The notes beneath the pieces are model-generated. The model made no database searches. It saw nothing but the letters and a program-made list of their open reading frames with translations, and was not told the DNA's origin. A program made the translations under genes and the position numbers. DNA of 64,000 nucleotides from an uncultured Solirubrobacterales bacterium (lineage in GTDB: Bacteria; Actinomycetota; Thermoleophilia; Solirubrobacterales; 70-9), in assembly GCA_963817065.1 (NCBI GenBank), contig CAWFMO010000002.1, positions 559,745 to 623,744 of the forward strand, written 5' to 3'. Shown in pieces: positions 4,677 to 64,000 of this stretch (positions are counted from its first letter, which is position 1; each line of letters starts with the position of its first letter).

Positions 4677-7600
4677 CTACTTCTTCTTCTTCTTGCGAAC
4701 GCACTTCTTCTTTTTCTTGCCCTTGACCTTCTTGAGCTTGAAGCCCTTGCGGCACTTCTGCGCGGTTCCGGTTCCGGATCCGGTTCCGGGCGGGTTGGTG
4801 ACCGGCGGGGTCGTTCCGGGCGTCTGGCCGGCGGGCGAGGTGATCAGCCAGCTGTAGGTGTCGGAGCTCTCGCGGTCGAGCTCGTCGGTGCCGCGGACGA
4901 TGAACACGTGCGGCCCGACGCTCAGCCCCGTGTATGCGTGGGCGGTGTTCGAGTCGCAGGCCGCGAACGCCGCGCCGTCGAGCTGGCATTCGACCGTCGC
5001 CAGCGCGTCGTCGACCGTGAACGCGAAGCTGGCGCTGGTCTCGGTCGTCGAGGCCGGCGGCTGGGCCGTGATCGTGACCACCGGGGCCGTCGTGTCGACG
5101 TTCCACTCGTGCTCGTCGGTGCCCACGTTTCCCGCCTCGTCGATCGCGAAGACCGTGAACTCGTGCGGGCCCTCGGAGAGCGCCGTGGCGACCGTGAACG
5201 GGTCGGTACACGGAACCGCGGGGTCGAGATCGACCTTGCACTCGAAGTGGTCGACGTCGCCGGCCGGCGAGCTGAACGTGAACTCGGGCGTCTGGTCGTC
5301 GTCCGGATCGCCCGGCGCCGAGTTGATCGTCACCGGCGGCGCGTCGAGATCGACCGTCCAGGTGTGAGTGTCGCTGGAATCGTTGCCGAGCGCGTCCTCT
5401 CCGCTGACGGTGAAGGTGTGATCGGCGTCGCCGAGACCGGTGAAGTCCTGCGGCGATGTGCAGGGGTTGATCGGCGTCTCGCCGTCGAGCTGGCAGGTGA
5501 CCGTGGCCGGGATGGCGTCGCCGATCGTGAACTCGAAGTGCGCGTTGGTCGAGTTGGTCGGGTCATCCGGCGCGGCGGTGATCTCGATGTCGGCACCGGT
5601 CGTGTCGAGCGCCCAGGTGAAGGCGTCGGCGGGGCCGGTGTTGCCGGCGGCATCGGTCGCCTGGACCTCGAAGGTGTGCGAGCCGTCCCCGGTCACCGGG
5701 AAGGTGTCGCCCGGATCGCAGGCCGCGAACGGGTCGGTGTCGAGTCGGCACTCAAACGTCGCGTTCGGGTCCTCGTCCGAGCTGAAGGTGAACTCGGGCG
5801 CGGTGTCGCTGGAGGGGTCGGTCGGGGTCGGGGGGTCGATCGTCGCGACCGGGGCGGTCTGGTCGACGTCCCATTCGTGGGTGTCCGACCCGGTGTTGGC
5901 GGCGTCATCCGTCGCCCGGACCGTGAACGTGTGCGGGCCCTCACCGACGACCGTGCGGTCCTCCGGGGAGTCGCAGGACGCGAACGCCTCGCCGTCGAGC
6001 GAGCACTCGACATCCGCGCTCGGGTCGTCGACGGTGAACTCGAAGTGGGCGTCGAGCGAGTTGGTCGGGTCGTCGGGGCCGTCCGTGATCACGACCTCCG
6101 GGGTCGCGGCCTCGACGATCCAGGTGAAGGAGTCTTCGCCGAAGTTGCCGGCCTCGTCGTAGACCCTGACCGTGAACGTGTGCTCGCCATCGGCGAGCTC
6201 CGGCGTCACCTCGTGCGGCGAGGAACAGAGCTCGAAGTCGCCGGCATCGATCTGGCACTCGAAGCGGTCGACGTCGCCGTCGGGTGAGGAGAACTCGAAC
6301 TCGGGCGTCGTGTCAGCCGACGGGTCGGTCGGCTGGTCGTCGATCGTCACCGTGGGCGCACCGGTCTCGACCGTCCAGGTGAATGAGGCGGGAGTCGGAT
6401 CGACGTTGCCGAGCGCGTCGGTCGCCTGAACCTCGAAGGTGCGCGAACCGTCGGTCACCGGGAAGCTGTCTCCCGACACGCAGGCCGCGAACGGGTCCGC
6501 GTCGAGCCGGCACTCGAAGGTCGAGTTCGCCTTGTCGGAGCTGAAGAAGAACTCCGGATCGGTGTCGTTCGACGGATCGGTCGGGGTCGGCGGGTCGATC
6601 GTCGTCTCCGGCGCGGCGGTGTCGATCGTCCATTCGTGCGAGAGGCTCGACTCGTTGCCGAGTGCGTCAAACGCGGTCACCGTGAACGTGTGGTCGCCGT
6701 CGGCGACGTCGGTGAAGTCCTGCGGCGAGGCGCAGGGGTCGATCGGCGTCTCCGCGTCGAGCTGGCAGGTGACGGCGACGGCGTCGCCGACCGTGAACTC
6801 GAAGTGGGGATCGTTGGAGTTCGTCGGATCGTCGGGAGCATCCGTGAACTCGATCTCGGAGCCGGTCGTGTCGACCGTCCAGGTGTGGGAGTCGGCACCC
6901 ACGTTGCCGGCCGTGTCGTTGCCGGTGACGACGAAGGTGTGCGAACCGTCGCCGAGGTCCGTGTAGTCCTGCGAGCTGAACGAGTCGCAGGCGACGAACG
7001 CGCCGAGGTCGAGCGAGCACTCGACGCTCTCGAGGTTCAGGTCGCTCGCCGTGAACTCGAAGTGAGCGTCATCCGAGGCGGTGGGATCGTCTGGGGCGTC
7101 GGTGATGTCGACCACGGGGAAGGTGGTGTCGAGCTCCCAGGTGAACGAGTCGGCAGCGCCGACGTTGCCGGGCCCGTCGATCGCCCGGACCTCGAAGGTG
7201 TGGTCGCCTTCCCCGGTGACCGGGAACGTGTCGCCCGAGACGCAGTTAAGGAATGGGTCGGTGTCGAGGCTGCACTCGAAAGTCGCGCTCGGGTCGTTGG
7301 AGCTGAAGAAGAACTCGGGATCCGTGTCGTTCGAGGGATCGGTCGGCGTCGGGGGATCGATCGTCGCGATCGGGGCGGTCAGGTCGACGTTCCAGCTGTG
7401 CGAAGCGAGGGGGCCGGTGTTACCGGCCACGTCGACCGCCCTGACGTCGAAGGTGTGCGGGCCCTCGCCGAGCGCCGGCGTGACCTCGAACGGCGAGCTG
7501 CAGGTGTCGAAGAGGCCGCCGTCGAGGCTGCACTCGAAGCGGTCGACGTCGAGATCGACGGAGCTGAACTGGAACTCGGGCGTCGTGTCGTTGGAGGGAT

Positions 7601-9377
7601 CGTCGGGCGCAACGTCGATCGTCGCCGACGGCGCCGCGGTGTCGATGTCCCACGTGTGGGAGTCCTGGCCGGCGTTTCCGGCCGGGTCGGTCGCCCGGAC
7701 GACGAACGTGTGCGGCCCGTCGCCGAGGCCGGAGAGGTCGTGCGAGGTCGAGGAGTCGCAGGGGTCGAAGCTGCCGCCGTCGATCTGACACTCGATGGTG
7801 GCGGTGTTGTCGTCGACCGTGAACTCGAAGTGGGGGTTGGTGTTGTTGCTGACCGCCGGCGGGCTGACGGTGATGTCGACGACCGGATCGATGAGGTCGA
7901 CGGTCCAGGTGTAGGAGTCGGCCGGGCCGGTGTTGCCGACCTCGTCGGTCGCCCGGACCTCGAACGTGTGCGAGCCATCGGTGACCGGGAAGGCGTCGCC
8001 CGACACGCAGGCCGCGAAGGGGTCGGTGTCGAGTCGGCATTCGAAGGTCGAGTCGGGGTCCTCGTTCGAGGAGAAGGTGAATACGGGTGCCGGATCGTTG
8101 GAGGGGTCGGACGGGAAGGTGTCGATGCTCGCGATCGGCTCGATCGTGTCGATCGTGAACGTCCGGCTCGCGGGCGTCGGGTCCTCGTTGCCGGCGACGT
8201 CGATCGCCTTGACGGTGAACGTATGGCTGCCGTCGGCGAGCGCGCCGGTGTTGAAAGTGCCGCTGTTGCAGGGCGCGAACGGGCCGTCGAGGCTGCACTG
8301 GAGGGTCGAGTTGGCCTCGGTCGAGTGGAAAGTGAAGGCCGCGCTGTCGTCCGGGATAGTCGAGCCGTCCGCGGGACCGGTGTCGATCACAGTGTCCGGC
8401 GGGGTGTTGTCGGTCTGCCAGCTCGGGTTGATGTCGGTCGCGGTGTTGTTCGTGAGCGCGGTGGTCGCGCCGCCCCCTGACGGGATCCGGTGGATCTCCT
8501 GGTCCGCGCCCGCGCCGAGGTTGGTGTTGAAAGCGATCGCGGCGCCGTTCGGCGACCAGGAGGGGTTCTGGTCGGTCGCCGTGTTGGTGGTGAGCTGCGT
8601 CTGCGACCCGCCGGCGGCGGTCATCGAGAAGATCTCGGCGTCACCGTCGCGGTTGCTGTCGAAGGCGATCTGGGTGTTGTCGGGGGACCAGCTCGGGCGG
8701 CCGTCGTTGGCGGCGTTGTTGCTGAGGTTGTTCTGACCGGAGCCGTTCGAATTCATCACGAAGACTTCGTTGTTGGTGTTGAAGCGCTGGAAGGCGATCT
8801 TGGTCCCGTCCGGCGACCAATCGGGGTTGAAGTCCGAGTCGTTGAGGCCGGTGTTGGTGAGGTTGGTGAGTGAGCCGCCGGCGGCGGTCATGCTCCAGAT
8901 CTCGTTGTCGCCGTCGCGTGAGCTGCGGAACGCGATCGAGGCCCCGCTCGGAGACCAGGCGGGGTCGCGGTCGTCACCGGTCGCGCCGGCGCCGGTCGTC
9001 GTCAGCTGGGTCAAGCCTGTGCCGTCGATGTTCATCGTGAAGATCTCGTTGTTGCTGGCGGCGACGGTCCGCGTGAACGCGACCTTGGTCCCGTCCGGCG
9101 AGACGGCGGGATCGAAATCGGGGACCGCGTTGTTGGTCAGCCGGACGGGATTGGTGCCCGTCGGAGTGATCTTGTAGATCTCCTCGTTGCCGTCGCGATT
9201 GCTGCTGAAGACGATCAACCCGTTCCCACCCGGGACGGTTGCGCTGCCGGCGGAGGCGAAGATCGCGACACCGAGGGTCGCGAGGCCGCCCGCGAGGACG
9301 GCGAAACGACGACGAGGCGAGCGCGCGGCGCCCTGCACCAGCGGTCCTCCCTGGTCGGTGGCGCTCTTGCTGGTCAT
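4677..9377 (-). CDS. Giant secreted protein: TolB-like PD40 propeller + 14 tandem two-Cys Ig-like repeats + Cys/poly-Lys C-terminal tail
   Basis: - ATG at 9375-9377 overlaps the upstream stop (ATGA).
- N-terminus MTSKSATDQGGPLVQGAARSPRRRFAVLAGGLATLGVAIFASAGSA (RR-type signal).
- WSPDGTKIAF-type propeller blades.
- 14 repeats of about 85 aa with FxFSS..FEC.LD....C......L.DG.HTF.V.A.D.AGN.
- Ends AQKCRKGFKLKKVKGKKKKKCVRKKKKK. Confidence 0.9.
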   Translation of the reverse strand: MTSKSATDQGGPLVQGAARSPRRRFAVLAGGLATLGVAIFASAGSATVPGGNGLIVFSSNRDGNEEIYKITPTGTNPVRLTNNAVPDFDPAVSPDGTKVAFTRTVAASNNEIFTMNIDGTGLTQLTTTGAGATGDDRDPAWSPSGASIAFRSSRDGDNEIWSMTAAGGSLTNLTNTGLNDSDFNPDWSPDGTKIAFQRFNTNNEVFVMNSNGSGQNNLSNNAANDGRPSWSPDNTQIAFDSNRDGDAEIFSMTAAGGSQTQLTTNTATDQNPSWSPNGAAIAFNTNLGAGADQEIHRIPSGGGATTALTNNTATDINPSWQTDNTPPDTVIDTGPADGSTIPDDSAAFTFHSTEANSTLQCSLDGPFAPCNSGTFNTGALADGSHTFTVKAIDVAGNEDPTPASRTFTIDTIEPIASIDTFPSDPSNDPAPVFTFSSNEDPDSTFECRLDTDPFAACVSGDAFPVTDGSHTFEVRATDEVGNTGPADSYTWTVDLIDPVVDITVSPPAVSNNTNPHFEFTVDDNTATIECQIDGGSFDPCDSSTSHDLSGLGDGPHTFVVRATDPAGNAGQDSHTWDIDTAAPSATIDVAPDDPSNDTTPEFQFSSVDLDVDRFECSLDGGLFDTCSSPFEVTPALGEGPHTFDVRAVDVAGNTGPLASHSWNVDLTAPIATIDPPTPTDPSNDTDPEFFFSSNDPSATFECSLDTDPFLNCVSGDTFPVTGEGDHTFEVRAIDGPGNVGAADSFTWELDTTFPVVDITDAPDDPTASDDAHFEFTASDLNLESVECSLDLGAFVACDSFSSQDYTDLGDGSHTFVVTGNDTAGNVGADSHTWTVDTTGSEIEFTDAPDDPTNSNDPHFEFTVGDAVAVTCQLDAETPIDPCASPQDFTDVADGDHTFTVTAFDALGNESSLSHEWTIDTAAPETTIDPPTPTDPSNDTDPEFFFSSDKANSTFECRLDADPFAACVSGDSFPVTDGSRTFEVQATDALGNVDPTPASFTWTVETGAPTVTIDDQPTDPSADTTPEFEFSSPDGDVDRFECQIDAGDFELCSSPHEVTPELADGEHTFTVRVYDEAGNFGEDSFTWIVEAATPEVVITDGPDDPTNSLDAHFEFTVDDPSADVECSLDGEAFASCDSPEDRTVVGEGPHTFTVRATDDAANTGSDTHEWDVDQTAPVATIDPPTPTDPSSDTAPEFTFSSDEDPNATFECRLDTDPFAACDPGDTFPVTGDGSHTFEVQATDAAGNTGPADAFTWALDTTGADIEITAAPDDPTNSTNAHFEFTIGDAIPATVTCQLDGETPINPCTSPQDFTGLGDADHTFTVSGEDALGNDSSDTHTWTVDLDAPPVTINSAPGDPDDDQTPEFTFSSPAGDVDHFECKVDLDPAVPCTDPFTVATALSEGPHEFTVFAIDEAGNVGTDEHEWNVDTTAPVVTITAQPPASTTETSASFAFTVDDALATVECQLDGAAFAACDSNTAHAYTGLSVGPHVFIVRGTDELDRESSDTYSWLITSPAGQTPGTTPPVTNPPGTGSGTGTAQKCRKGFKLKKVKGKKKKKCVRKKKKK
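4836..8402 (-). repeat. 14 tandem ~255-bp coding repeats (Ig-like two-Cys module, four shuffled subtypes)
   Basis: Protein-level periodicity read directly from the 1587-aa ORF. For example, IDPPTPTDPSNDTDPEFFFSS recurs three times, and the DITxxPxDP..HFEFT and VDRFEC subtypes alternate. Confidence 0.85.
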
Positions 9378-12300
9378 CGTTTCCTGCCCTTGCGTTTGCA
9401 CTTTTTCTTCTTCTTCCCTTTCTTCTTCTTCGCCTTGCACTTCTTTGCAGGCGTGGTGGTGGGTGGCGTCAGTTGTGCGCCCTGCTGTTGTGCCGGGGGC
9501 GGCAAAACGCCGATCCCGACGCTGTCGGAAGCCGTGTTGTTGGCGAGGTCGCCGTCGGAGCTGGTCGAGGCCGTGGCCGTGTTCTCGACGGTCTGGCCCG
9601 CCGCGCCCGCCGCGGCGCTGACGTTGAGGACGATGTCAGCCGCCTGCTCGCCCGCGTGCAGGTGGTCGTCGCTCGTGCAGGTGACGGTGCCGCCGGCGTG
9701 CGAGCACGCCCAGCCCGTGCCCGAGGCGCTGACGAAGCTGAGCCCGGAGGGCAGCGCGTCGGTGACCGTCACCGGGTCGATGCCGTCGGCGTTGCCGACG
9801 TTCTCGACCGAGATCAGGAAGGCGCCCGCGCCGCCCGGGGCGAAGCTCGCCGGCGCGTGCGACATCGCGACCGCGAGATCGATCATCTCGACGTCGGTGG
9901 TCGCCGAGTCCGTGTCGTTCGCGGCGTTGCCGTCGCCGGGCGCCGAGATCTCGACCCCGGTGGTGACGCTCGGGACCGCGGTGCTCGCGACCACGACCTC
10001 GATGCCGACGTCGCTGCGCGTCTCGGCCTCGAGGCCGTCCGCGTGGGTGCAGGTCACAACGGCGCCTGCCGCGGAGCAGGACCAGCCGTTGCCTTCGTAG
10101 TCGGTGAACGTGAGCCCGGCCGGGAGCGTGACCTCGGCGCTGATCGGGCCGCTGAGGTCATCGGCGCCGTCGTTGCGGACCGCGACGGTGTAGGTCGCGT
10201 TGGTGCCGACCCTGAACTTGTCGTCAGGGGGATCGGGGACCCGCGGGCGGATCGAGACCGCGGCGTCGAGCGACGGGCTGATGTTCGCCGAGTCGGTGTC
10301 GGAGTCGTTCGAGCCGTCGGCGTCGTCGCGGGTCGAGACCGAGGCGGTGTTGTCGATCGTCGCCGGAGCGTCGTTGTCGACGACCACGTCGAGGGTGATC
10401 GGCGCCGCCGCTCCGCCGGCCGCGATCGGGCCCGCGTGGTCGCAGCTCACGGTCCCGGAGGAGATCGAGCAGCTCCAGCCGGCTCCCGTGGCGCCCGCGT
10501 AGGTGAGTTCGGTCGGGAGCGCGTCGCTGACGTGCGCCGGGCCGTCGCTGTCGAGATCGCCGACGTTGGAGACGTCGATCGTGTAGCTGCCCTCGCCGCC
10601 GCGCTCGGGCTGTTCGGTGTGGCTCTTGTCGATCGCGAGGTCGATCCGGCCGACGTCGGCGGTGTCGTCGTCGCTGTTGTCGGCGGTGTTCGGGTCCTCG
10701 GGGATCTCGACGCTCGCCTCGTTGGTGATCTCGGAGGCCGCGTCGGATGCGACGTCGGCGAGCAGCTCGAGCGTCTGGGCGCCGTCGCCGGCCGCGATCG
10801 CACCGGCGTGCTCGCAGGTGACCACCTGGCCGAGCGCCGAGCAGGACCATTCGCTGCCGTTGGCGCCGGCGAACGTCAACCCGTCGGGGAGCTCGTCGGT
10901 GACGACGGCGGGAGCGCCGGTGTCCGCGTCGCCGACGTTGGAGACGTCGATCTCATAGCTCGCCTCGCCGCCGACGTGGAAGCTGCCCGAGCTCGTCTTC
11001 GAGAGCGCGAGGTCGTTGGCGTGGACGACGGTCGGATCGGAGGCGGTGTCGTTGGCGTCGTTGCCGTCCTCCTGGTTCGAGACCGTCGCGACGTTGGTCA
11101 CGCCAGGGTAGGCGTCGGCCCCGACCAGGACCTGGAGAGTTATCGGGGGCGCCGAGTCGCCGTCGGCGATCGCCGCCGCGCGGTCGCACGTGACCTCCTC
11201 GCCGTCCAGGGAGCAGGTCCAGCCCGAGCCGGTCGCGTTCACGTAGTCGAGCCCGTCGGGGAGCGTGTCGGTGACGGTCGTCGTGCCGACGGTCGGCCCG
11301 GAGCCGATGTTGTTGACCCGCAGGATGTAGGCGCGGGTGTTGCCGGCGCGGAAGTCGCTGCTGTGGGTCTTGACCAGCTCGAGGTCGGTCGAGGTCAGCG
11401 CGGTCGGATCGGAGTCGGAGTCGTTGGCCCCGTTGACGTCGTCGGCGCCGCTGACGGTGGCGCTGTTGGTGATCTCCTCCTCCTCGGTGAGCCCGACGTC
11501 GACGGTCAGCGTGATCACGGGCGCGGTCTGGCCCGCGGCGACCGCTCCTCCGCGTGTGCAGGTGACGTCCTGGCCGGCCGCGCCGCAGCTCCAGCCGGTA
11601 CCGGTGGCGCTGACGAAGGTCAGCTCGGGCGGCAGCGTGTCGGTGACGGTGGTCGTGCCGACCGTCGCGGCGTCGCCCTCGTTCGTGACCGCGAGCGTGT
11701 AGACGCCCTCCTGGCCGATGCCGAAGCCGCCGGCGTGGCTCTTGTCGATCGTGAGGTCGGTCGCCGTGACCGTCGTCGGGTCGTCGTCGGAGTCGTTGGC
11801 GGGGTTCAGGTCCTCGTCGTCACCGGTTCCGGCGCTATCCACGTTCGCGGTGTTGGTGACCGAGGGAAGCGCCGAGGCGTCGACGTCGACCGAGATCGAG
11901 ATCGGGGCCGCGTCCTCGTTCGGGTCGAGGGTCTCGTCGCTCGTGCAGGTCACGTCCTGGCCGAGGACGTTGCAGATCCAGTCGGTCCCCGAGGCGTTGG
12001 TCGGGGTGAGCCCGGCGGGAAGCGTGTCGGTGACGGTGGTCGTGCCGGCGCTCGCGCGAGCGCCGTCGTTGGTTACCGCGAGCGTGTAGGCGCCCGGGGA
12101 GCCGACGCGGAAGTCTCCGGCGTGGCTCTTGTCGATCGCGAGGTCGGGGGTCGCCGTGACCGAGGTCGGGTCGCTCGAGCTGTCGTTGGCCGCGTTCGGG
12201 TCGAGCGCGGTCGAGACCGAGGCCGTGTTGATCACCGATGGGACGGCGGCGACGCCAACCGATACCGGGATCTCGATCGTCGCGCTTTCGGCGGGAGCGA

Positions 12301-13858
12301 TCCCCGCCGCGTGGGTGCAATCGACGTCCTGGCCGGCGGTGGTGCAGTCCCAGCCGCCCGGCTCGGTCGCGTCGGAGGGCGTGAGCCCCGCGGGCAGCGT
12401 GTCGTGGATCGTCGCCGCGCCGGTCGTCGCGGCCGTGCCGGCGTTCGAGACCTCGAGCGAGTAGGTCCCGGTGCCGCCGACCAGGAACGCGCCGGTGTGG
12501 CTCTTCGAGATCGCGAGGTCGGCCGCGTCGACGGTCGTCGGGTCGGATGAGGAGTTGTTCGGAGCCGCGCTGTCGCCGGCGGTGGCGACCGTCGCGGTGT
12601 TGGTCACCGAGGGCCACGCGGCCGCGCCGACGTTCGTGTTCACGGTGATGCTCGGGACCCCGGCTCCGCCGAGGATCCCCAGCGGGCGGGTGCAGGTGAC
12701 GGTCTGCGAGACCGCGCCGCAGCTCCACCCCGTGCCGGTGGCGCTGACGAAGCTGAGCCCGGTCGGCAGCGTGTCGGTGACGGTCGTCGTCCCGGTCGTC
12801 GCACCGGTGCCGACGTTGGAAACCGCGAGGTTGTAGCTGCCCGGGGATCCGACCGCGAAGTTGCCCGTGTGGCTCTTGGTGATCGCCAGATCGGGCGGCA
12901 ACGGGGCGCCGACGGTCACCGTGCGTGTGGTCTTGTCGGAGTCCAGGTCGTTGTCGAACACCGTCATCCCGACGGTGTGGGTGCCGGGGGTCGCGAAGAT
13001 GTGGTTGACCGACGCGGTGTTGGTGACCTCGTCGATCGTGCCGTTGTTGTCGTAGTCCCAGCGGTAGCCGCAGTTCGCCGTCGTCGGCAGCGCCGGGACG
13101 CAGGTCTTGACTCCGGCGGGCACGAACGAGCCCGAGCCGTTGAGCGCCACGTTAAGAGGGGCCGGGCCGTTGTTCGGCGTGGCCGTGAACGACGCGTTGA
13201 CGCCCTTGGTCAGGATCGGGCTGAAATCGGCCCTGAGGATCGCGTGGTTGCTACCCGAGCCAGACGGAATCCCGACCGCGTCGTTGACCTGATTTCCAAT
13301 GATCGTGCTGCATTCGCTCGTCCCCGGTACCGAGAAGGTGTGATTGGCGAGCGTCACCTCGCCGTTCGCAGTGCTGTACGGGACGCCGTTGGCGACGCCC
13401 GTCGTCGCCTGGTTGATGTCGATCGGTGAGCCGGCGGAGCCGATCCGGCAGCCGCCGTTGAACGGCACGCCATCGATCTTGATCCAGACACGCAGGCGAA
13501 CCGAAGCCGCGCCGGTCAGAGGGTCGATCGTCCCCTTGACGTTCGAGGCATTGCTCGGGTCCCCGACCACGTTGATGTGGATCGTGATGTCGATCCCGCT
13601 GACCGTTATCGGGATGTCGGGGAAGTCGAACTGGCTTACGGGGATCAGCAGGTTGCCCTGCCCGTCGACCGTGCCACTGAACGTGATGTCCTCGTCGGGG
13701 TCGGAGTCATCGAAGTCGAAGCTTTGGGAGCCGACCTCGAGGTGGCCGTCCTTGACCACGGCGCTGAACGCCCCCGGGTTGCCGACCTTGCGCGCCGCGG
13801 CGTCGCCCGCCGGGATCAGCAGCGCCGCCAGCATCCCCGCCAATAGAAGCTTCTTCAC
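9374..13858 (-). CDS. Giant secreted protein: unknown N-domain + PKD-like domain + 9 DUF11 repeats + Cys/poly-Lys tail
   Basis: - GTG at 13856-13858 overlaps the upstream stop (GTGA).
- Signal peptide VKKLLLAGMLAALLIPAGDAAA.
- PKD-like segment FTATPNNGPAPLNVALNGSGS...YRWDYDNNGTID...HIFATPGTHTVGMTVFDNDLDSD.
- Nine repeats starting DLAI(T/S/D)KSH.G.F.VG..G.Y.L.V.N.G (DUF11 / conserved repeat domain).
- Ends PAKKCKAKKKKGKKKKKCKRKGRKR. Confidence 0.9.
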   Translation of the reverse strand: MKKLLLAGMLAALLIPAGDAAARKVGNPGAFSAVVKDGHLEVGSQSFDFDDSDPDEDITFSGTVDGQGNLLIPVSQFDFPDIPITVSGIDITIHINVVGDPSNASNVKGTIDPLTGAASVRLRVWIKIDGVPFNGGCRIGSAGSPIDINQATTGVANGVPYSTANGEVTLANHTFSVPGTSECSTIIGNQVNDAVGIPSGSGSNHAILRADFSPILTKGVNASFTATPNNGPAPLNVALNGSGSFVPAGVKTCVPALPTTANCGYRWDYDNNGTIDEVTNTASVNHIFATPGTHTVGMTVFDNDLDSDKTTRTVTVGAPLPPDLAITKSHTGNFAVGSPGSYNLAVSNVGTGATTGTTTVTDTLPTGLSFVSATGTGWSCGAVSQTVTCTRPLGILGGAGVPSITVNTNVGAAAWPSVTNTATVATAGDSAAPNNSSSDPTTVDAADLAISKSHTGAFLVGGTGTYSLEVSNAGTAATTGAATIHDTLPAGLTPSDATEPGGWDCTTAGQDVDCTHAAGIAPAESATIEIPVSVGVAAVPSVINTASVSTALDPNAANDSSSDPTSVTATPDLAIDKSHAGDFRVGSPGAYTLAVTNDGARASAGTTTVTDTLPAGLTPTNASGTDWICNVLGQDVTCTSDETLDPNEDAAPISISVDVDASALPSVTNTANVDSAGTGDDEDLNPANDSDDDPTTVTATDLTIDKSHAGGFGIGQEGVYTLAVTNEGDAATVGTTTVTDTLPPELTFVSATGTGWSCGAAGQDVTCTRGGAVAAGQTAPVITLTVDVGLTEEEEITNSATVSGADDVNGANDSDSDPTALTSTDLELVKTHSSDFRAGNTRAYILRVNNIGSGPTVGTTTVTDTLPDGLDYVNATGSGWTCSLDGEEVTCDRAAAIADGDSAPPITLQVLVGADAYPGVTNVATVSNQEDGNDANDTASDPTVVHANDLALSKTSSGSFHVGGEASYEIDVSNVGDADTGAPAVVTDELPDGLTFAGANGSEWSCSALGQVVTCEHAGAIAAGDGAQTLELLADVASDAASEITNEASVEIPEDPNTADNSDDDTADVGRIDLAIDKSHTEQPERGGEGSYTIDVSNVGDLDSDGPAHVSDALPTELTYAGATGAGWSCSISSGTVSCDHAGPIAAGGAAAPITLDVVVDNDAPATIDNTASVSTRDDADGSNDSDTDSANISPSLDAAVSIRPRVPDPPDDKFRVGTNATYTVAVRNDGADDLSGPISAEVTLPAGLTFTDYEGNGWSCSAAGAVVTCTHADGLEAETRSDVGIEVVVASTAVPSVTTGVEISAPGDGNAANDTDSATTDVEMIDLAVAMSHAPASFAPGGAGAFLISVENVGNADGIDPVTVTDALPSGLSFVSASGTGWACSHAGGTVTCTSDDHLHAGEQAADIVLNVSAAAGAAGQTVENTATASTSSDGDLANNTASDSVGIGVLPPPAQQQGAQLTPPTTTPAKKCKAKKKKGKKKKKCKRKGRKR
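9509..12892 (-). repeat. Nine tandem DUF11-type coding repeats (~375 bp each)
   Basis: The motif DL(A/T)IxKSHxGxFxVGxxGxYxLxVxNxG...TDTLPxGLTxxxAxGxGWxC...VTCT recurs nine times in the ORF translation. Confidence 0.8.
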
Positions 13859-16788
13859 TTGCCGCCCCGCTTGCGCTTGCATTTGCCCTTGCGCTTGCCC
13901 TTGCACTTCTTCGGGCCCGAGCCGCCGGATCCGCGCGGAGCCGCCTGCGCGGAGAGCGACTCGGGGAACTCGAGCCCCGAGTCGATCGTCCAGGTCGCCG
14001 ACGCGGGCGTCGGATCGAAGTTGCCGGCGAGGTCGAGCGCGCGGACCTCGAAGGTGTGGGTGCCGTCGAGCAGGCCGCCGTAGCTAGCCGGCGAGGCGCA
14101 GGCCGCGAAATCGCCCTCGTCGACGGAGTCGAGCCTGCACTCGAACGTCGCGAGCTCGTTCGAGGAGAACTCGAAGTCGGCGTTCGGGCTGGGCGACGGG
14201 TTGGGCGGGGTCGAATCGATTCCGGTCTCCGGGACGGTCAAGTCGATCAGCCAGGTGTGCGAGGCGGGCGTCGCGTCGACGTTGCCGCCGATGTCGATCG
14301 ACCTGACCTCGAAGGTGTGCTCGCCTTCGCCGAGCCCCGAGTACCCGTGCGGCGAGGCGCATGGCAGGAAATCGACCTCGTCGGCCGAGTCGAGCCGGCA
14401 CTCGAACGTGCCGAGCTCGTTCGAGGAGAACTCGAAATCGGGATTGACGTTCGAGGAGGGATTCGAGGGAGTCGAGTCGATGCTGGTCTCTCCGGAGAGC
14501 CCGTCGATCGTCCACTCGAACGAGGCGGGGGTCTCGTCCGCGTTGCCCGCCAGGTCCAGTGCCCTGACGTCGAGGGTGTGCTCGCCCGGGGCGAGATCCT
14601 CGAACTCGGAATGCTCGGCGCAGGGATCGAAGTCGCCGGGCGCCGTGGAGTCGAGGCGGCACTCGTATCCGCCGAGCTCGTTCGAGGCGAAGTCGAACTC
14701 GGCGTCGGGGTTCGAGGTCGGGTTGGCCGGCGTCGACTCGATCGCGGTCTGGGGATCGGTCGCGTCGCTGCGCCAGGTGATGCTGTCGACCCCGCTCGCG
14801 TTCCCGGCCGCGTCGGTCGCCTTGACCTCGAAGGTGTGGACGTCGTCGGCGAGCACCGGGGTCACGTAGGGCGAGCTGCAGGGGTCGAAGCCATCGCCGT
14901 CGAGCTGGCACTGGAAGCTCACCGGCGAGGTGACCGGCGTCTCGGTGTTCGAGAAGTCGATCTCCGGCGTCGTGTCGTTGGAGGGGTCGGGCGGCCCGGC
15001 GTCGACGCCGGCGCTCGGGGCGACGGTGTCGACGGTGAACGAGGTCGTGTCGGGCGAGGCGTCCTCGACGCCGCCCGCGGCGGCCTTGACCTGAACGGTG
15101 TGCGCGCCGTCGGCGAGCCCCGGGAAGGTCTGCGGCGAGTTGCAGCTCGTGAACGATCCGCCGTCGAGCTTGCACTGGAAGTTCGTCGCGACCGCGGTCG
15201 CGTTGCTGTTGAAGGCGACGTCCGGGCTCGCGTCGTTGGTGAACGCCGGCGGCTCGTCGGTGATCGTGGTGCCGGGGCGGACGTTCAACGAGACGGTGTC
15301 ATCGTCGGTGCGGCCGAAGCCGTCGTTGGCGGTGACGCTGAAGGAGTCGGTTCCGGCGAATCCGGCCGCCGGGGTGTAGGTCCGGGCGGCGCCGCTGCCG
15401 CCGACCGTGCCGTTCGCCGCGGCGCCGGTGGTCCAGGAGAGCGAGTCGCCGTCGGGGTCGGAGCCTGTGAGCGTCATCGGAGCGTTGGTCGCGCCGGTGT
15501 CGGTGGTCACCGTCTGGCCGTTCGCCGTCGGCGCCGCGTCGACCCGGTACTGGAGCGTCACCGCGCCGCCCGTCCTGCGAATCGGGTCCGCCGCGTCGCC
15601 GGCGCCGTTGTCGGTGACCTTTGCGCGGACGCTGTAGAGACCCGCGGCCTGGGGGCTGCTGTCGACGTTCTGGGTCGTCGTGTTCGCGGGGAGGGTCGAG
15701 CCGTAGCCGGCGATGTCACTCGCCTCGAAGCCGCTGGCGCCGTCGCCGGTGTTGTTGTTCACGTCCCACTCGACGATCTGGGCGCCGCCGCCGTCACCGG
15801 CGTCGGGGTCGACGAGGCCCTGGGCCCTGACCGTCCAGTCCTGGCCGAACTGCGGGCGTACGACGCCGCTCTGCGTGGTGGTCGCGCTGTCGAGGCTGAG
15901 GCTCGGGGCGCCGGCGCTGTTGACGTCTGCGGTTCCGATCGGGACCCAGTAGTTGGGATTCTGGTCCTGGTTGCAGGTGTTGCCGGTGAGAAGCTCGGCC
16001 TCGACCACGAACGCGCCGCGGTCGGGGAAGGTGACGGTCAGCGACTTCGACGCGTTATCGCCGTTGCTCGGACAGGAATCGGTCTCCGCCGACAGGGCGC
16101 CGGTGCGGATGTTTCGGGTCCGCCAGCGGATCCCGTCGAAATCGGAGTTGCCGGTTGTGTCGCTGTCGTCGCCGGTGTAGGTGAAGGTCTTCTGCTCGCC
16201 CGGCTCCAGGGAGGTCGAGTTGACGAAGTTGTTGGTGCCCCAGGTGTAGATGTAGGCGAAGTCCTCGGGGCCCGTGCAGCTTCCGGCGGCGAGGAACTTG
16301 ATCTGCGACGAGCTGGTGCCGCTCGTCTGGTTGCCGGAGTCGCGCGCCGCGATCCGGGCGACGCGGTTGTCGGTGCGCCGCGTGCCGCCGAATCCCGGGA
16401 ACCCGTCGCAGCTCATCCCGGTGTTGCCGGTCGGGAGCTGGTAGGTGACGTTGGAGCGCGAGCGCGGGTAGCCGCCGAAGATGTTGGGACGCGTGGCGCC
16501 GGCGCCGCGGACGGTCGAGACGTCGTTGGTGCCGTCCCAGTCGTCGTCGGTGAGCAGCGAGGCCAGCGTGTTCCCGGTGTCATGGCTGAACCAGCCGGAG
16601 ATCCGGAGCTGGTTCGCGTTGCCGCCCGTGCCCGTCTGGCCGGCGGTCGCGCACGAGATCAGCCAGGACGTCTGGCCGCTGCAGCCGGTGTTTGTATTGA
16701 GGATCGTCGGGTTGGCGGCCGAGGCCGCGGCGGGAATCGCCAGCGCGGCGACCGCGGCGAGCGCGGCGATCAGGCCCGCGCGCCTCAC
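13855..16788 (-). CDS. Secreted protein: Cys-rich unknown N-domain + PKD-like + cadherin/Ig-like + 5 two-Cys Ig-like repeats + Cys/poly-basic tail
   Basis: - GTG at 16786-16788 overlaps the upstream stop (GTGA).
- Signal peptide VRRAGLIAALAAVAALAIPAAASA.
- The N-domain is paralogous to that of the upstream gene.
- Ends GPKKCKGKRKGKCKRKRGGK. Confidence 0.9.
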   Translation of the reverse strand: MRRAGLIAALAAVAALAIPAAASAANPTILNTNTGCSGQTSWLISCATAGQTGTGGNANQLRISGWFSHDTGNTLASLLTDDDWDGTNDVSTVRGAGATRPNIFGGYPRSRSNVTYQLPTGNTGMSCDGFPGFGGTRRTDNRVARIAARDSGNQTSGTSSSQIKFLAAGSCTGPEDFAYIYTWGTNNFVNSTSLEPGEQKTFTYTGDDSDTTGNSDFDGIRWRTRNIRTGALSAETDSCPSNGDNASKSLTVTFPDRGAFVVEAELLTGNTCNQDQNPNYWVPIGTADVNSAGAPSLSLDSATTTQSGVVRPQFGQDWTVRAQGLVDPDAGDGGGAQIVEWDVNNNTGDGASGFEASDIAGYGSTLPANTTTQNVDSSPQAAGLYSVRAKVTDNGAGDAADPIRRTGGAVTLQYRVDAAPTANGQTVTTDTGATNAPMTLTGSDPDGDSLSWTTGAAANGTVGGSGAARTYTPAAGFAGTDSFSVTANDGFGRTDDDTVSLNVRPGTTITDEPPAFTNDASPDVAFNSNATAVATNFQCKLDGGSFTSCNSPQTFPGLADGAHTVQVKAAAGGVEDASPDTTSFTVDTVAPSAGVDAGPPDPSNDTTPEIDFSNTETPVTSPVSFQCQLDGDGFDPCSSPYVTPVLADDVHTFEVKATDAAGNASGVDSITWRSDATDPQTAIESTPANPTSNPDAEFDFASNELGGYECRLDSTAPGDFDPCAEHSEFEDLAPGEHTLDVRALDLAGNADETPASFEWTIDGLSGETSIDSTPSNPSSNVNPDFEFSSNELGTFECRLDSADEVDFLPCASPHGYSGLGEGEHTFEVRSIDIGGNVDATPASHTWLIDLTVPETGIDSTPPNPSPSPNADFEFSSNELATFECRLDSVDEGDFAACASPASYGGLLDGTHTFEVRALDLAGNFDPTPASATWTIDSGLEFPESLSAQAAPRGSGGSGPKKCKGKRKGKCKRKRGGK
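13978..15280 (-). repeat. Five tandem two-Cys Ig-like coding repeats
   Basis: Same repeat family as 4836-8402, for example IDSTPSNPSSNVNPDFEFSSNELGTFECRLDSADEVDFLPCASPHGYSGLGEGEHTFEVRSIDIGGN. The upper boundary is approximate. Confidence 0.75.
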
Positions 16789-53836: not shown

Positions 53837-55192
53837 TTGGGCGATGATGGGAGCGTGCGAAGAGCCTTCCTGATCGCGCTCGCCGTGGCCGCGCTCGCGG
53901 CGCCGGCCTCGTCCTCGGCCCAAACTCTCTCGCTGGCCGAGTTCCCGCAGGCCGGCGAGACCTTCGCCGCCCCCTTCCACGTCACCAGCCCGCCCGGGGA
54001 CACGCGCCGCGTCTTCGTCGTCGAGGCCGGCGGAACGATCCGGCTGGTCAAGGACGGCGTCACCGAGCCGGCGCCGTTCCTCGACCTGAGCGCCGAGGTT
54101 TTCGATTTCGCTGAAGGCGGCAACTGCGAGTGCGGCGTGTTCTCGATCGCCTTCGCACCCGACTACGCGACCAGCGGGCGCTTTTACGCCTTCTACACCG
54201 CCGACGACATGGACCTTCTCGACCCGGGACACCTGATCCGGATCACTGAGTTCCGGCGCTCGGGCGCCGACCCCGACCTGGCGGACCCGGCGACGCGCCG
54301 CCTCGTGCTCGAGATCGACCATCCGAGCGCCAGCAACCACAACGGCGGCCAGCTCCAGTTCGGCCCCGACGGCCTGCTGTACATCGCGACCGGTGACGGA
54401 GGTGGCGGGCAGTCGGCGAACGCCCAGAACACAGGGTCGCTGCTCGGCAAGCTGCTGCGGATCAACCCCGCCGGCGCCGGCGCCGGCGACTACTCCGTCC
54501 CCGCGGACAACCCGTTCGTCGGTGTGGCGGGCGCCGACGAGATCTACTCGACCGGGCTCCGCAACCCCTACCGCTTCTCCTTCGACCGCCTGACCGGCGA
54601 CCTCGTGATCGGCGACGTCGGCGAGGGCCAGTGGGAGGAGATCGACTTCCTGCCCCGCGGGCTCGGCAATGGCGCCAACTTCGGTTGGAACTGCTTCGAG
54701 GCCGACGCGCCGATCGTCGTCGCGCCCCCCTGCCCGCCGGCCGCTCACGTCCCGCCCGTGCACAAGTACCCGAACCCCGCCGGCGGCGGGGCGGCGATCA
54801 TCGGCGGCTTCGTCGTCCGCGACACCGCGCTCCCGACCCTGCTCGGCCGCTACCTCTACACCGACCAGTACATCGACGAGGTCCGCAGCATCTCGCTCGC
54901 CCCCGGCGGATCGAGCGGCGACACCGCGCTGGCGCTCGACCCGCTCTTCTCCCCGGTCTCATTCGGCGAGGACGCCTGCGCGCACGTCTACGTCACCACG
55001 TTCACCAACGTCTACCGGCTCGAGCCCGAGAACGGCCCGTTCCCGTGCGCGCCGCAGCGGGCTCCCTCCCTGACCGCTCCGCCGCCGGTCGCCGGCACCA
55101 TGCCGCCCGCGACCACCACCCGGCGCAAGAAGTGCAAGCGCAAGCGCGGCAAGGCGAAGAAGCGCTGCAAGCGCAGGAACCGCCGCCGCTGA
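53837..55192 (+). CDS. Secreted PQQ-dependent sugar (glucose/sorbosone) dehydrogenase-family beta-propeller with Cys/polybasic tail
   Basis: - GGAGG is 6 nt before TTG 53837; GTG 53855 is the alternative start.
- Signal peptide VRRAFLIALAVAALAAPASSSA.
- Motifs HNGGQLQFGPDGLLYIATGDGG, GKLLRINP, GLRNPYRFSFD, GDVGEGQWEEI.
- Tail RRKKCKRKRGKAKKRCKRRNRRR. Confidence 0.88.
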   Translation: MGDDGSVRRAFLIALAVAALAAPASSSAQTLSLAEFPQAGETFAAPFHVTSPPGDTRRVFVVEAGGTIRLVKDGVTEPAPFLDLSAEVFDFAEGGNCECGVFSIAFAPDYATSGRFYAFYTADDMDLLDPGHLIRITEFRRSGADPDLADPATRRLVLEIDHPSASNHNGGQLQFGPDGLLYIATGDGGGGQSANAQNTGSLLGKLLRINPAGAGAGDYSVPADNPFVGVAGADEIYSTGLRNPYRFSFDRLTGDLVIGDVGEGQWEEIDFLPRGLGNGANFGWNCFEADAPIVVAPPCPPAAHVPPVHKYPNPAGGGAAIIGGFVVRDTALPTLLGRYLYTDQYIDEVRSISLAPGGSSGDTALALDPLFSPVSFGEDACAHVYVTTFTNVYRLEPENGPFPCAPQRAPSLTAPPPVAGTMPPATTTRRKKCKRKRGKAKKRCKRRNRRR

Positions 55193-56033: not shown

Positions 56034-56034
56034 T

Positions 56035-60708: not shown

Positions 60709-60827
60709 CCGTCGGCGTCTGCTTGAGCCTTCCGCTCCTCTAGCTCCTGCGTCGCGCGTGCAAGGCTTTTCGGATCCCAATAGAGGTAGCCCAGGAGAGC
60801 GTCCACGAACGCGAGGATGAGCGTCAT
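60705..60827 (-). CDS. 40-aa micro-ORF translationally coupled to the DUF4145 gene
   Basis: Own translation: MTLILAFVDALLGYLYWDPKSLARATQELEERKAQADADG. Its ATG overlaps the upstream stop (ATGA). Below the ORF-track cutoff. Confidence 0.3.
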   Translation of the reverse strand: MTLILAFVDALLGYLYWDPKSLARATQELEERKAQADADG

Positions 60828-61354
60828 GTCGCCTCTTCGACGTCGACCACGTCGTCGTGCCCTCCGATGTTCCTGTAGTCGCGGACCAGATGGGCTTGAT
60901 CCACCAGGGGTTTTGGGACTTCCCCCTGGGTCACAAGCGCGTCAAGGCGGTCGTACAGATTCCGCATCTCGTCGGTCCTCGGAAATCCCTGGTCAGCGCA
61001 GACGGCCTCTAGCGTGCGACCCGCATGGACGGCGAACGTGTCGGGGTCGAAGCGAAGCTCCATCATCCTGGCGTAGCGGCGCTTCACCCGGTCGGGCAAG
61101 TCCTCAATGTCCCGTGTGGTCGGAAAAAGGACCACAGGATTGACATCGGCGGGGTCATCAAGGCCGTCCATGAAGACGTAGCGCGACAGAGTCAACCCGC
61201 CGCAGCTCGAGCACTCCTGCACCCAGGCGGTGTCCTGCCGCTCGAGCTCCAGACGAACGGGGCGGTGATTGATCTCCCGCGCCGTGGGGACATAACCGCG
61301 CGTTCTCCACTTCCGAGCGTCCCTTCCCGCCCACAATGTCCGGCGGCCAGCCAT
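60824..61354 (-). CDS. DUF4145-domain protein
   Basis: The C-terminal half LPDRVKRRYARMMELRFDPDTFAVHAGRTLEAVCADQG...LYDRLDALVTQGEVPKPLVDQAHLVRDYRNIGGH matches my recollection of DUF4145 (ending ...R..GN..aH). The N-terminal start is uncertain. Confidence 0.6.
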   Translation of the reverse strand: MAGRRTLWAGRDARKWRTRGYVPTAREINHRPVRLELERQDTAWVQECSSCGGLTLSRYVFMDGLDDPADVNPVVLFPTTRDIEDLPDRVKRRYARMMELRFDPDTFAVHAGRTLEAVCADQGFPRTDEMRNLYDRLDALVTQGEVPKPLVDQAHLVRDYRNIGGHDDVVDVEEAT

Positions 61355-62323: not shown

Positions 62324-64000
62324 CTACTTCTTTCGCTTCCGCTTCTTCTTGCATTTCGCCTTCCGCTTCTTGCTGCTGGCCGCGGGCCGCCCTCGCCGTT
62401 TCTTCCGCTTCTTGCACCGCCGCGCGGGGCTCCCACTCGCCTGTGTCACGACCGGGGCGACGGCGGGGGCGGGGGCGGGCGGGGCGAGCGGGCAGGGCAC
62501 CTCGCTGCACCCCCGTTCGTAGGAGCCGGCGTCGCAGCCGCCGAAGGCCGGGCGCGCCGCGCCACGCTGGTCGACACCTAGCGGTGTGGATTCAAGATCC
62601 AGGCAGGCCGCGGGCGGGACGACGTTGAGCGCCGGGCTCATCGGGCCGAGGGCGTGAGTCGCGGTCGGGCCGCCGTTGTTCGCCAGACCTTCGGGCACCG
62701 CCAGCGTGTTGGGGAGATCGGTGTCGACATTGGGCCCGACGCAGCTCTCACCAGCGTCGACGTTGTAGGCGTCGGCGACAGCCGCCGTCTGGCATCCCTC
62801 CCCCGCCTGATTGATCAGCGAGCCACGCAGGGTCAGGGGGCCGGCGTTGGCGATCCCGTCGAGCGTCCCGTCGGTGGTATTGAGGGCGATCGTCGTGTGC
62901 ACGAGCTTCGTCGTAGCCGTCGCCGGGAATTGGGTGGCGATCGCGCCGCCAACGTCGACGGCCGGGCCGGTCGTGCTGTTCCCCGAGATCGTCGAGTTGA
63001 GCGCCTCGAGCGAGGTGGCGAAGTCCTGCCAGATCCCGCCGCCCCCCGGCCTCGGCAAAGGGGGCAGCGCATTCAGCGTATGGGTGAACACGTTGTTGCC
63101 GCTGATCGTGCTGCCGGTGATCCGAAGCGGCGCGGGGCCGCTGAGATCAATTCCCGCGCCGTGTGCCACGTCGCCGTCTTCCGGGGAGGTGACGTCATTG
63201 TCCTTGATCGTCGAGTCCTGGATCGTGGATGTACCGGTGGCGGTGCTGATCACGATCCCGCCCCCCCGGATCTCGGTCGGGTTCGCGTTCGCTACCTGGG
63301 TGGCCGTGTTGTCCTCGACCAGGGTGCGGACGATGCTCGTCCCGATCTCCGAAAAGAGACCCCCGCCGGCCACGCTCGCCATGTTCCCCCTCAGCGACAT
63401 GCCCGGCGGTCCTCCGATCGAGGAGTCCGAGATGCTCAGCGAGCCTCCCGAGTCCTTGTAGATCCCGCCGCCGCGGGCGGCGACGTTCCTGATCACGACG
63501 CTTGACTTCAGCGACAGCAAGCTGCCCGTGGCGGCGAAGATGCCGCCGCCGTCGTTGCCGGTGAGGCCATCCTCGATCACGACCGTGTCGATCGTCACCG
63601 GTGTGGTCGCGAGGACGTGGATCACCCGGTCGATGTCGGCCCCGTCGATCACGTCGAGCGGGCCGGCAATCGGGTCCAGGTCGCCCCTGATCGTCAGTCC
63701 GGCGTCGGCGCCCGGCGGCTGCCTGATGTCGAGGTCGCCGCCGGCGTTCAAGTTCTCATCCGGAGTGCCCGCGAGGGTGTAGGAGCTGTCGGGGGCGTCG
63801 AGGGTGATCAGGTCGGCGGTGGCGCTCTGACCGTCGACGCAGCCGTCGGCAGGGTTGGCGCTGTTCGCCTGGGCGCTGGTGACCGCTTCGCGAAGCGAGC
63901 AGTTCGCGTCATTGGCGACCGTGTCGGCCACGATGTTCACCGGAATCGTCGCCGCGGATGCCGCCGGTACGAGCCAGAGCCCCAGCGCCGCCAAGATCAC
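62324..64000 (-). CDS. Secreted right-handed beta-helix protein with CSLREA motif and choice-of-anchor-Q-like C-region, Cys/polybasic tail (5' end at or just beyond the window edge)
   Basis: - (V)ILAALGLWLVPAASA signal h-region.
- NCSLREAVTSAQAN.
- Repeated GGGI/GGGL beta-helix rungs.
- LANNGGPTATHAL...GVDQRGAARPAFGGCDAGSYE.
- Tail ARRCKKRKKRRGRPAASSKKRKAKCKKKRKRKK. Confidence 0.85.
   Translation of the reverse strand: MILAALGLWLVPAASAATIPVNIVADTVANDANCSLREAVTSAQANSANPADGCVDGQSATADLITLDAPDSSYTLAGTPDENLNAGGDLDIRQPPGADAGLTIRGDLDPIAGPLDVIDGADIDRVIHVLATTPVTIDTVVIEDGLTGNDGGGIFAATGSLLSLKSSVVIRNVAARGGGIYKDSGGSLSISDSSIGGPPGMSLRGNMASVAGGGLFSEIGTSIVRTLVEDNTATQVANANPTEIRGGGIVISTATGTSTIQDSTIKDNDVTSPEDGDVAHGAGIDLSGPAPLRITGSTISGNNVFTHTLNALPPLPRPGGGGIWQDFATSLEALNSTISGNSTTGPAVDVGGAIATQFPATATTKLVHTTIALNTTDGTLDGIANAGPLTLRGSLINQAGEGCQTAAVADAYNVDAGESCVGPNVDTDLPNTLAVPEGLANNGGPTATHALGPMSPALNVVPPAACLDLESTPLGVDQRGAARPAFGGCDAGSYERGCSEVPCPLAPPAPAPAVAPVVTQASGSPARRCKKRKKRRGRPAASSKKRKAKCKKKRKRKK

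Follow-up and report, generated by a model that had tools for sequence, protein, structure and literature searches.

Seven genes for exported proteins in a 64-kb stretch of an uncultured Solirubrobacterales genome (contig CAWFMO010000002.1; the whole stretch analysed is called the window below) end in short, very basic tails in which Cys residues bracket runs of Lys and Arg. A sequence-only reading of this DNA had placed such tails on seven secreted proteins, and translation at the coordinates below reproduced all of them exactly, stop codons included. The tail-bearing genes, their tails and two associated features are as follows (subtypes are defined further below).

4677..9377, minus strand: T1, exported PD40 propeller and Big_13/OmpL47-barrel protein (translation, domain matches)
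4677-4763, minus strand: tail of T1, AQKCRKGFKLKKVKGKKKKKCVRKKKKK; subtype C, 'CxKG[FY]..GKCV'
9374..13858, minus strand: T2, exported protein with nine DUF11 domains and PKD (translation, domain matches)
9374-9451, minus strand: tail of T2, KKCKAKKKKGKKKKKCKRKGRKR; C-x11-C
13855..16788, minus strand: T3, exported Big_9/Big_13 protein (translation, domain matches)
13855-13917, minus strand: tail of T3, KKCKGKRKGKCKRKRGGK; C-x7-C
16785..21242, minus strand: exported Big_13/Big_9 protein, first gene of a four-gene operon; an eighth basic-ended exported protein
45994..47448, plus strand: S8a, exported subtilase with fervidolysin-type prodomain (domain matches; signal peptide by eye)
47323-47448, plus strand: four-Cys tail of S8a; C-x10-C-x-C-x10-C
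47488..49041, plus strand: S8b, exported subtilase with fervidolysin-type prodomain (domain matches)
48907-49041, plus strand: four-Cys tail of S8b; C-x10-C-x-C-x10-C
53855..55192, plus strand: exported GSDH-type PQQ dehydrogenase (domain matches)
55121-55192, plus strand: tail of the GSDH protein, RRKKCKRKRGKAKKRCKRRNRRR; C-x10-C
62324..64000, minus strand: CSLREA/beta-helix/choice-of-anchor Q protein, N-terminus beyond the window edge
62324-62425, minus strand: tail of the CSLREA protein, ARRCKKRKKRRGRPAASSKKRKAKCKKKRKRKK; subtype B-like, small Ala/Ser core
62513..62686, minus strand: choice-of-anchor Q domain (NF041518), residues 439-496 of the 558-aa open reading frame (ORF)

The signal peptides of T1, T2 and T3 are RRRFAVLAGGLATLGVAIFASAGSA, VKKLLLAGMLAALLIPAGDAAA and VRRAGLIAALAAVAALAIPAAASA. 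Signal peptides had been claimed for all seven proteins, and signal-peptide-like N-termini were indeed found, the last protein being cut by the window edge. The Pfam and NCBIfam domains were those proposed and amount to six unrelated architectures in the window, as expected of a portable module.

Composition and anatomy of the tails

The tails comprise 18-42 residues and carry a net charge of +12 to +23 and two or four Cys. No hydrophobic segment was found in any of the seven and the linkers before them are rich in Pro, Thr, Gly and Ala; both traits had been described earlier and hold for every tail. Taken together, the tails contain 78 Lys and 49 Arg, and the C-terminal residue is Lys in four of seven and Arg or Ser in the rest. 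The two basic residues are interchangeable, with 8 Lys and 10 Arg in the GSDH tail and Arg-rich tails on the S8 proteases, which suggests that charge matters more than sequence.

With a G+C content of ~70%, the window uses Lys in 2.2% and Arg in 5.8% of its codons (n = 16,287), and Lys is the more enriched of the two in the tails. The probability of finding at least 8 Lys per 25 residues is 4e-8 per position. The argument that Lys runs against the GC bias reflect selection was borne out by this codon composition and by the retention of tails in homologues. When stop-to-stop segments of at least 60 aa were scanned in six frames, basic ends that are both Lys-rich and Cys-containing were limited to the five two-Cys tails, and the two four-Cys tails were likewise among the most basic ends; the remaining very basic ends were Arg-only off-frame readings of GC-rich DNA. 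A sliding scan in all frames recovered the five two-Cys tails and the Cys-free AKKK tail of topoisomerase I, nothing else, and hence no internal copies of the module in the window. The reading frames are supported by a G+C content at third codon positions (GC3) of 0.83-0.94.

The tail is present on 7 of the 10 exported soluble proteins in the window and on none of its ~29 other genes. The three exceptions are the exported PD40/RTX protein at 825-2051, a neighbour as acidic as the tail-bearing proteins, the protein at 16785-21242 and that at 43445-44074. The second of these ends in a Cys-free basic stub, KLKRKKK (16785-16808), so a simple basic end without Cys also exists on the same type of protein. 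It is the first of four surface-protein genes (16785-21242, T3, T2, T1) that are translationally coupled through the start/stop overlaps GTGA, GTGA and ATGA on the minus strand, where the T3 GTG meets the upstream stop (16785-16788), the T2 GTG the stop of T3 (13855-13858) and the T1 ATG the stop of T2 (9374-9377). Owing to these 4-nt overlaps, the purine-rich Lys codons of each tail lie just 5' of the next start codon. An AGGAAA stands 4 nt before the T1 ATG and could double as the ribosome-binding site of T1.

The passengers contrast sharply in charge with their tails. Their bodies have a net charge of -14 to -232 and an isoelectric point (pI) of 4.05-5.0, except for S8b (net -1, pI 6.9); T1 is the extreme case, with a body of pI 4.05 and net -232 and a tail of +18. 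Outside the two S8 proteases, the Cys counts of the passenger bodies are all even (28, 22, 16, 6, 8, 30, 2), which is consistent with oxidative folding outside the cell.

The four-Cys tails of the S8 proteases read as a tandem pair of C-x10-C loops. S8a and S8b are paralogues of 65% identity in which the Cys pattern of the tail is kept while the loop sequence drifts, and a search with S8b for homologues gave no four-Cys tails beyond these two. Two distant S8 homologues (P0448 and P0461, 33-35% identity) have Arg-rich two-Cys ends such as KKRCQGKRRSQRRGRTRQRRCAAR, and the Cys-bracketed polybasic theme may reach beyond the Lys-rich Solirubrobacterales versions.

In the AlphaFold2 model of the window GSDH protein, the propeller has a predicted local distance difference test score (pLDDT) above 90, linker 411-430 one of <50-61 and the tail one of ~75, with a helix at 439-450; the model presents the tail as a semi-ordered helix on a disordered linker. 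In the CSLREA protein the choice-of-anchor Q domain was matched with 51.5 bits against a cut-off of 25, and only a Pro/Ala linker lies between it and the tail; linker and tail alone follow the domain in 62324-64000. From its NCBIfam naming, we take this domain to be one that precedes alternative anchoring or sorting signals.

Wider family, subtypes and position in the protein

The named relatives of the window GSDH protein are proteins of Solirubrobacterales metagenome-assembled genomes (MAGs). Cys-bracketed basic tails were present on ~30 of its 120 best homologues (53-62% identity), and most of them follow one pattern, subtype A, at the same place and with the same Cys spacing as the window GSDH tail. 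Patternless loss of the tail in orthologues, which the earlier reading had named as a sign of mere drift, was not seen: tails are kept at 53-62% identity and also upstream of secE-nusG in four MAGs. A tail-profile search gave 105 metagenomic fragments, nearly all of subtype A; being proteins of ≤88 aa only, they give no basis for statistics on passengers or taxa. A canonical tail directly follows choice-of-anchor Q in P0144, P0146 and P0174, the domain match in P0146 reaching 49.6 bits. Two minimal proteins of 66-72 aa, P0166 and P0202, consist of signal peptide, short spacer and subtype A module only; judged from this make-up, they would be secreted as free cationic disulfide peptides.

An exhaustive search of 1.84 billion representatives (50% identity clusters) with the subtype A profile yielded 1009 clusters at E ≤1e-3 and 430 at E ≤1e-10. 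In the best 150 of the 1009 clusters the match was always C-terminal, 146 lying ≤1 residue from the end and the rest ≤7. Exactly two Cys occur in the last 48 residues of 108 of 134 subtype A representatives, with a gap of 10-11 residues in 102 of these 108, and most full-length representatives begin with a signal peptide.

When the DNA of 185,579 species, each represented by one genome, was scanned for AAGAAGTGCAAGAAGAAG (KKCKKK), at least 115 loci were obtained. Among the matches listed, which are the scope of all counts on these loci, at least 74 loci come from ~38 different Solirubrobacterales MAGs and a few from unclassified Actinomycetota MAGs; all 34 matches in low-GC loci look like chance, being mostly in short ORFs and the module being present in none. 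The DNA pattern is AAG-only, which favours high-GC genomes, and the taxonomic range on these terms is Solirubrobacterales so far. At least 61 ORFs in these loci end in such tails, which fall into three subtypes.

Subtype A: PTGQRAAALKKCKKK-x(5-20)-KKCKKKAxxLPV; in the window, the GSDH tail may derive from it
Subtype B: KKKKCKKKK..(S/A)AAA..KKKKCKKKKK, small Ala/Ser core; in the window, the CSLREA tail resembles it
Subtype C: KC[RK]KG[FY]..K..GKCVKKKK; in the window, the tail of T1

Subtype A is defined by its TGQRAAAL flank, the C-x10/11-C spacing and A-x-x-L-P-V at the very C-terminus. The T2, T3 and GSDH tails are short Gly-centred loops, of which GSDH (C-x10-C) and T2 (C-x11-C) align in register with the Cys core of subtype A, both flanks being absent. 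Against the subtype A profile these two tails scored 4.8 (GSDH) and -2.0 bits (T2), non-significant after HMMER bias correction. Since it shares the C-x10-C spacing and the Gly position with the tails of its homologues, the window GSDH tail probably descends from subtype A by loss of both flanks. As composition correction also cancels the hidden Markov model (HMM) scores between subtype A and the other window tails, subtype B and subtype C, homology between subtypes is not demonstrable in this way. Within a larger family whose subtypes are more sharply defined, the window tails appear to form the degenerate end. For subtype A, AlphaFold2 predicted a helix-turn-helix hairpin (mean pLDDT 80.5).

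Passengers in 39 related proteins include beta-helix, DUF5122, GDPD, cadherin/Big_9, NHL, Kelch and GH5 cellulase domains. In GSDH homologues (P0017-P0120) and S8 homologues (P0362-P0476), other recurrent C-terminal modules stand in place of the tail. One consists of RTX repeats with CKGGKGKDTASKCEVEKSI at their end; another is basic, resembles a beta-strand and has the form ..RRAVARIEVSATGGGGGT..VKQKR or ..RFVVRVGRAGRARLSAA..AKLVVRATDRWGNRRT.TVRILLRR.

The restriction to exported proteins seen in the window also holds in the related loci. A signal peptide was found, by predictor and inspection, in 34 of 35 complete tail-bearing ORFs. A crude predictor by itself was positive for 27 of these 35 and for 85 of 330 other ORFs (Fisher p = 3e-9), and seven of its eight negatives have a signal peptide by eye, the remaining one being a fragment. 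The tail is thus a feature of secreted ORFs and not equally frequent elsewhere.

The module is not bound to the C-terminus. The sequence-only reading had described a C-terminal tail, and this applies to the window and to most loci, where 94 of 116 in-frame KKCKKK in high-GC loci lie within 45 codons of the stop. It is not strictly true, however, since at least 11 genes in related MAGs encode a signal peptide, an AxA, a few residues, the Cys-bracketed poly-Lys module, a polyPro linker and then the passenger. These N-terminal copies, all of subtype B, occur at L048 (tandem paralogues 1665-4067 and 4121-6499, both with a metalloprotease-like HExxH motif) and at L001, L003, L010, L016, L028, L034, L053, L070 and L108. 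Their passengers include the metalloprotease-like family, a cadherin-like protein and small beta-rich proteins. Either end of a mature protein can therefore bear the module, and this makes an autonomous binding module more plausible than a C-terminal signal of the sortase kind.

Genomic surroundings

By Pfam annotation, the window is an ordinary chromosomal region. It holds rplJ, rplA, nusG and secE, followed in our inventory by the four-gene operon of giant surface proteins; an acyl-CoA dehydrogenase, folE2, envelope glycosyltransferases, a Wzy_C-like protein and a two-component system; holB, tmk and topA; the two S8 genes; nrdR and nrdJ; the GSDH gene and the CSLREA gene.

Directly upstream of secE-nusG stands a tail-bearing gene for an exported protein, both in the window (3248-9377) and at four MAG loci (L018, L039, L044 and L085), and NusG is 93% identical between the window and these four Solirubrobacterales MAGs. 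The distance from secE to the acyl-CoA dehydrogenase gene is ~2.3 kb at L085 as compared to ~17 kb in the window, which indicates that the surface-protein operon is a variable insert at a conserved site. The SecE ORF itself (3793-4509, minus strand) can be read as 238 aa, of which only the last 55 residues are covered by the SecE match; either the start lies far downstream or SecE carries an N-terminal extension that is long and rich in Arg and Ala.

Topoisomerase I ends in a Lys/Ala/Pro-rich tail, AKKKAPAKKKKKAPAKR (37826-37918, minus strand), without Cys and on a protein without signal peptide, and was rejected as a family member for both reasons. It is a cytoplasmic basic tail of the HBHA/Hlp-like kind and an internal contrast to the exported Cys-bracketed tails. 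The exported Gly-rich protein of unknown family at 43445-44074 (plus strand) terminates in a hydrophobic helix with a basic segment behind it, from which it follows that this genome also uses helix-type C-terminal anchoring.

Between 56000 and 62000 the G+C content drops to 61%, as against ~70% for the window. This stretch contains an N6/N4 DNA methylase whose coding sequence is divided between overlapping frames (56644-57405 and 57077-57874), the gene of a DUF4145 protein (60824-61354) and ORFs that could not be annotated. It resembles a restriction-modification or defence islet that was acquired horizontally and whose methylase has suffered a frameshift; an rRNA operon at 56-62 kb was considered and rejected.

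Function of the module and comparison with known systems

On balance we favour a function as a disulfide-closed polycationic anchor, which would hold very acidic exoproteins (pI 4-5) non-covalently on the anionic envelope. The module would be made of one or two Cys-Cys-closed Lys/Arg loops, usually with a further basic run, on a flexible linker. Once the protein has been exported via Sec or Tat, the paired Cys would be oxidised to a disulfide, rendering the basic loop rigid and protecting it from proteases. Its charge of +12 to +23 could then bind an envelope polyanion, with anionic phospholipid head groups, wall-linked acidic glycopolymers and lipoglycan as candidates, and the acidic passenger (pI 4-5) would be repelled and presented to the outside on the tip of the linker. 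Solirubrobacterales would in this case make wide use of retention by charge where other bacteria have a sorting signal with a membrane helix. The anatomy of the module, its confinement to exported proteins, its portability, conservation and distribution among lineages and its use at both termini are observed, whereas we infer that the disulfide forms, that a polyanion is bound and that the target is the cell's own surface; the occupation of an anchor slot is indicated by the position of the module directly after choice-of-anchor Q and by the lack of LPXTG-like C-termini among the 365 ORFs sampled from the related loci. Among the roles that had been suggested earlier, an anchor and a disulfide loop are thus the favoured ones, whereas a C-terminal processing tag is disfavoured by the N-terminal copies.

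Several observations do not sit easily with such an anchor. In subtype A, non-basic residues (T, G, R, A, A, L ... A, L, P) are near-invariant, which together with its C-terminal position is more suggestive of specific recognition or of a specific fold than of plain charge. The two Cys do not obviously lie side by side in the predicted subtype A hairpin. That most MAG tails strongly favour Lys over Arg would be compatible with a Lys-specific chemistry too. Finally, translocation of +20 charges is energetically costly, as known for Sec substrates in E. coli, and in view of this cost the module may have a role related to translocation.

The near-invariant positions of subtype A are also an argument for a sorting or processing signal, in which a dedicated enzyme would recognise the module (especially the TGQRAAAL and LPV flanks of subtype A) and cleave it or attach it covalently. 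Such a covalent link might, for example, join a Lys epsilon-amine to peptidoglycan, in the way in which the C-terminal Lys of Braun's lipoprotein is attached by L,D-transpeptidases. The strictly C-terminal matches in the best 150 of 1009 clusters, the position after choice-of-anchor Q, which is a site of recognised sorting signals, and the use of Lys in preference to the mutationally cheaper Arg would agree with this. We nevertheless consider it unlikely: subtype B is N-terminal on the mature products of at least 11 genes, a hydrophobic segment that could keep the substrate at the membrane is missing, no conserved non-basic motif is shared by the window tails, in which Lys and Arg interchange, and no sorting-signal HMM matched. 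Nor did clustering of the 365 neighbouring ORFs reveal a recurrent partner enzyme; it returned housekeeping synteny only (NusG, acyl-CoA dehydrogenase, DnaX), and the window has no YkuD-type gene by Pfam annotation. The stronger version, with the module, above all subtype A, as the signal of a novel Solirubrobacterales-specific sorting or covalent-attachment system and the window tails as its degenerate derivatives, strikes us as slightly more doubtful still, and equally so the notion that such a system is the helix-free, Lys-based counterpart of sortase and exosortase signals.

A different target for the same charge deserves somewhat more credit, even if we would not bet on it. The module could be a sticky end for the substrate or matrix, its targets being polyanions outside the cell (for example extracellular DNA, humic material, clay, acidic exopolysaccharide or other microbes' surfaces), on which exoenzymes and adhesins would be concentrated. 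All electrostatic evidence fits this equally well; the carriers are soil MAGs, hydrolase- and adhesin-like ones are among the passengers (S8, GH5 cellulase, GDPD, metalloprotease-like, cadherin/Ig repeats), and P0166 and P0202 carry nothing but the module behind their signal peptide. The present data do not distinguish such a sticky end from self-anchoring, although the long Pro-rich linkers and the replacement of anchoring signals after choice-of-anchor Q slightly favour display on the cell surface. An aid to export or folding without any later role, the basic end slowing release from the translocon or transiently neutralising or chaperoning the acidic passenger, appears improbable. The very acidic bodies, the very basic tails and the tail-bearing gene directly upstream of secE-nusG in the window and four MAGs would speak for it. 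The charge mismatch is, however, huge (+18 versus -232 in T1), the equally acidic exported neighbour at 825-2051 does without the module, paired Cys and a folded hairpin subtype would be needless, and adjacency to secE is most simply explained as shared synteny of close relatives, given their 93% identical NusG. Least probable by far is low-complexity drift or mis-annotation without function. It could appeal to the simple composition of the tails and to the HMMER bias correction, which removes any significant score of the window tails against the subtype A profile. It is effectively refuted by a composition that runs against mutational bias in frames supported by GC3, by the conservation of Cys number and spacing and of tails in 53-62% identity homologues, by the restriction to exported proteins and by the 1009 clusters of subtype A alone.

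Solirubrobacterales are abundant, almost uncultured soil Actinomycetota, and to our knowledge the organisation of their cell surface is essentially unknown. The module points to a lineage-wide rule for placing exoproteins (proteases, dehydrogenases, glycosidases, giant adhesin-like proteins) that domain databases have missed. Carrier proteins are at present annotated without a localisation signal, and HMMs of the subtypes would improve the prediction of secretomes from soil metagenomes. If the module is a charge anchor, it would offer a surface-display or immobilisation tag of ~25-35 residues usable at either terminus; if a dedicated enzyme is involved, it would represent a new class of bacterial sorting signal.

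The earlier impression that the tails belong to no named family was confirmed, as no C-terminal sorting model in Pfam or NCBIfam matched them. No subtype matched Pfam or NCBIfam release 20 even at E ≤10, PDB sequences gave 0 matches, and a Foldseek search of the subtype A hairpin against PDB returned nothing better than E = 4. No description of the motif was found in the literature searched. The N-terminal placement of the module is likewise a new observation.

With LPXTG, PEP-CTERM, GlyGly-CTERM, MYXO-CTERM and PGF-CTERM signals the module shares its shortness, its portability, its terminal position on proteins that have a signal peptide but unrelated passengers, the low-complexity linker before it, its basic end and its place after choice-of-anchor domains. 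It differs from them in lacking a signature motif and a membrane-spanning segment, in occurring at the N-terminus as well and in the extent of its basic part, 18-42 residues with paired Cys as compared to 3-6 in these signals. None of the tails contains LPXTG, Gram-positive-anchor models were unmatched by full proteins or tails alone at E ≤10, and no tail matched the NCBIfam/TIGRFAM models of the four CTERM signals at E ≤10. The only related match was rhombotarget A over the beta-helix body, well below threshold (27.6 bits, cut-off 295). A type IX secretion C-terminal domain is a beta-sandwich of ~80 residues, far longer than these tails, and the host is an actinobacterium, not a member of the Bacteroidota; the only matches related to this system were those of PorU over Ig-like body repeats, again sub-threshold (37.6 bits, cut-off 420).

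Like GW, LysM, SLH, CWB2 and choline-binding repeats, the module would be a terminal, portable device for non-covalent retention at the envelope, used at either protein end. Those repeats are folded, measure 40-80 residues, recognise specific glycans and have Pfam models, whereas the module has 18-45 residues, is compositionally extreme and has no entry in Pfam or NCBIfam. Cationic loops that are closed by a disulfide and bind to anionic lipids of the envelope are known from the anti-lipopolysaccharide factor loop, bactenecin and thanatin-like peptides. They have two Cys around a basic loop of ~7-20 residues, as the module does, and P0166 and P0202 resemble secreted cationic peptides; these loops contain aromatic as well as aliphatic residues, are amphipathic and act as free peptides, while the module is almost purely basic and fused to large passengers.

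Mycobacterial HBHA has a heparin-binding domain and the actinobacterial Hlp/LBP proteins have Lys/Ala/Pro tails, all of them C-terminal and Lys-rich. They are actinobacterial charge modules as well, bind polyanions and mediate surface association or adhesion. In HBHA, however, the repeats are Cys-free and of the KAAP type, Lys residues are methylated and a classical signal peptide is absent, whereas the window tails have paired Cys (two or four), few Ala and Pro and almost no repeats of these, and sit on proteins with Sec/Tat signal peptides. Further afield, the polybasic, heparin-binding C-terminus of extracellular superoxide dismutase (EC-SOD), with its adjacent Cys, and the retention motifs of PDGF-B and VEGF tether secreted proteins to anionic polysaccharide matrix, and can be removed by proteases cutting at basic residues. 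They are eukaryotic, evolutionarily unrelated and of far lower charge density; the likeness, a C-terminal Lys/Arg cluster beside disulfide-forming Cys, is a functional analogy only. In conclusion, the tails represent a real, selected and lineage-wide module, which fails every testable defining feature of known C-terminal sorting signals and resembles charge-based retention devices.

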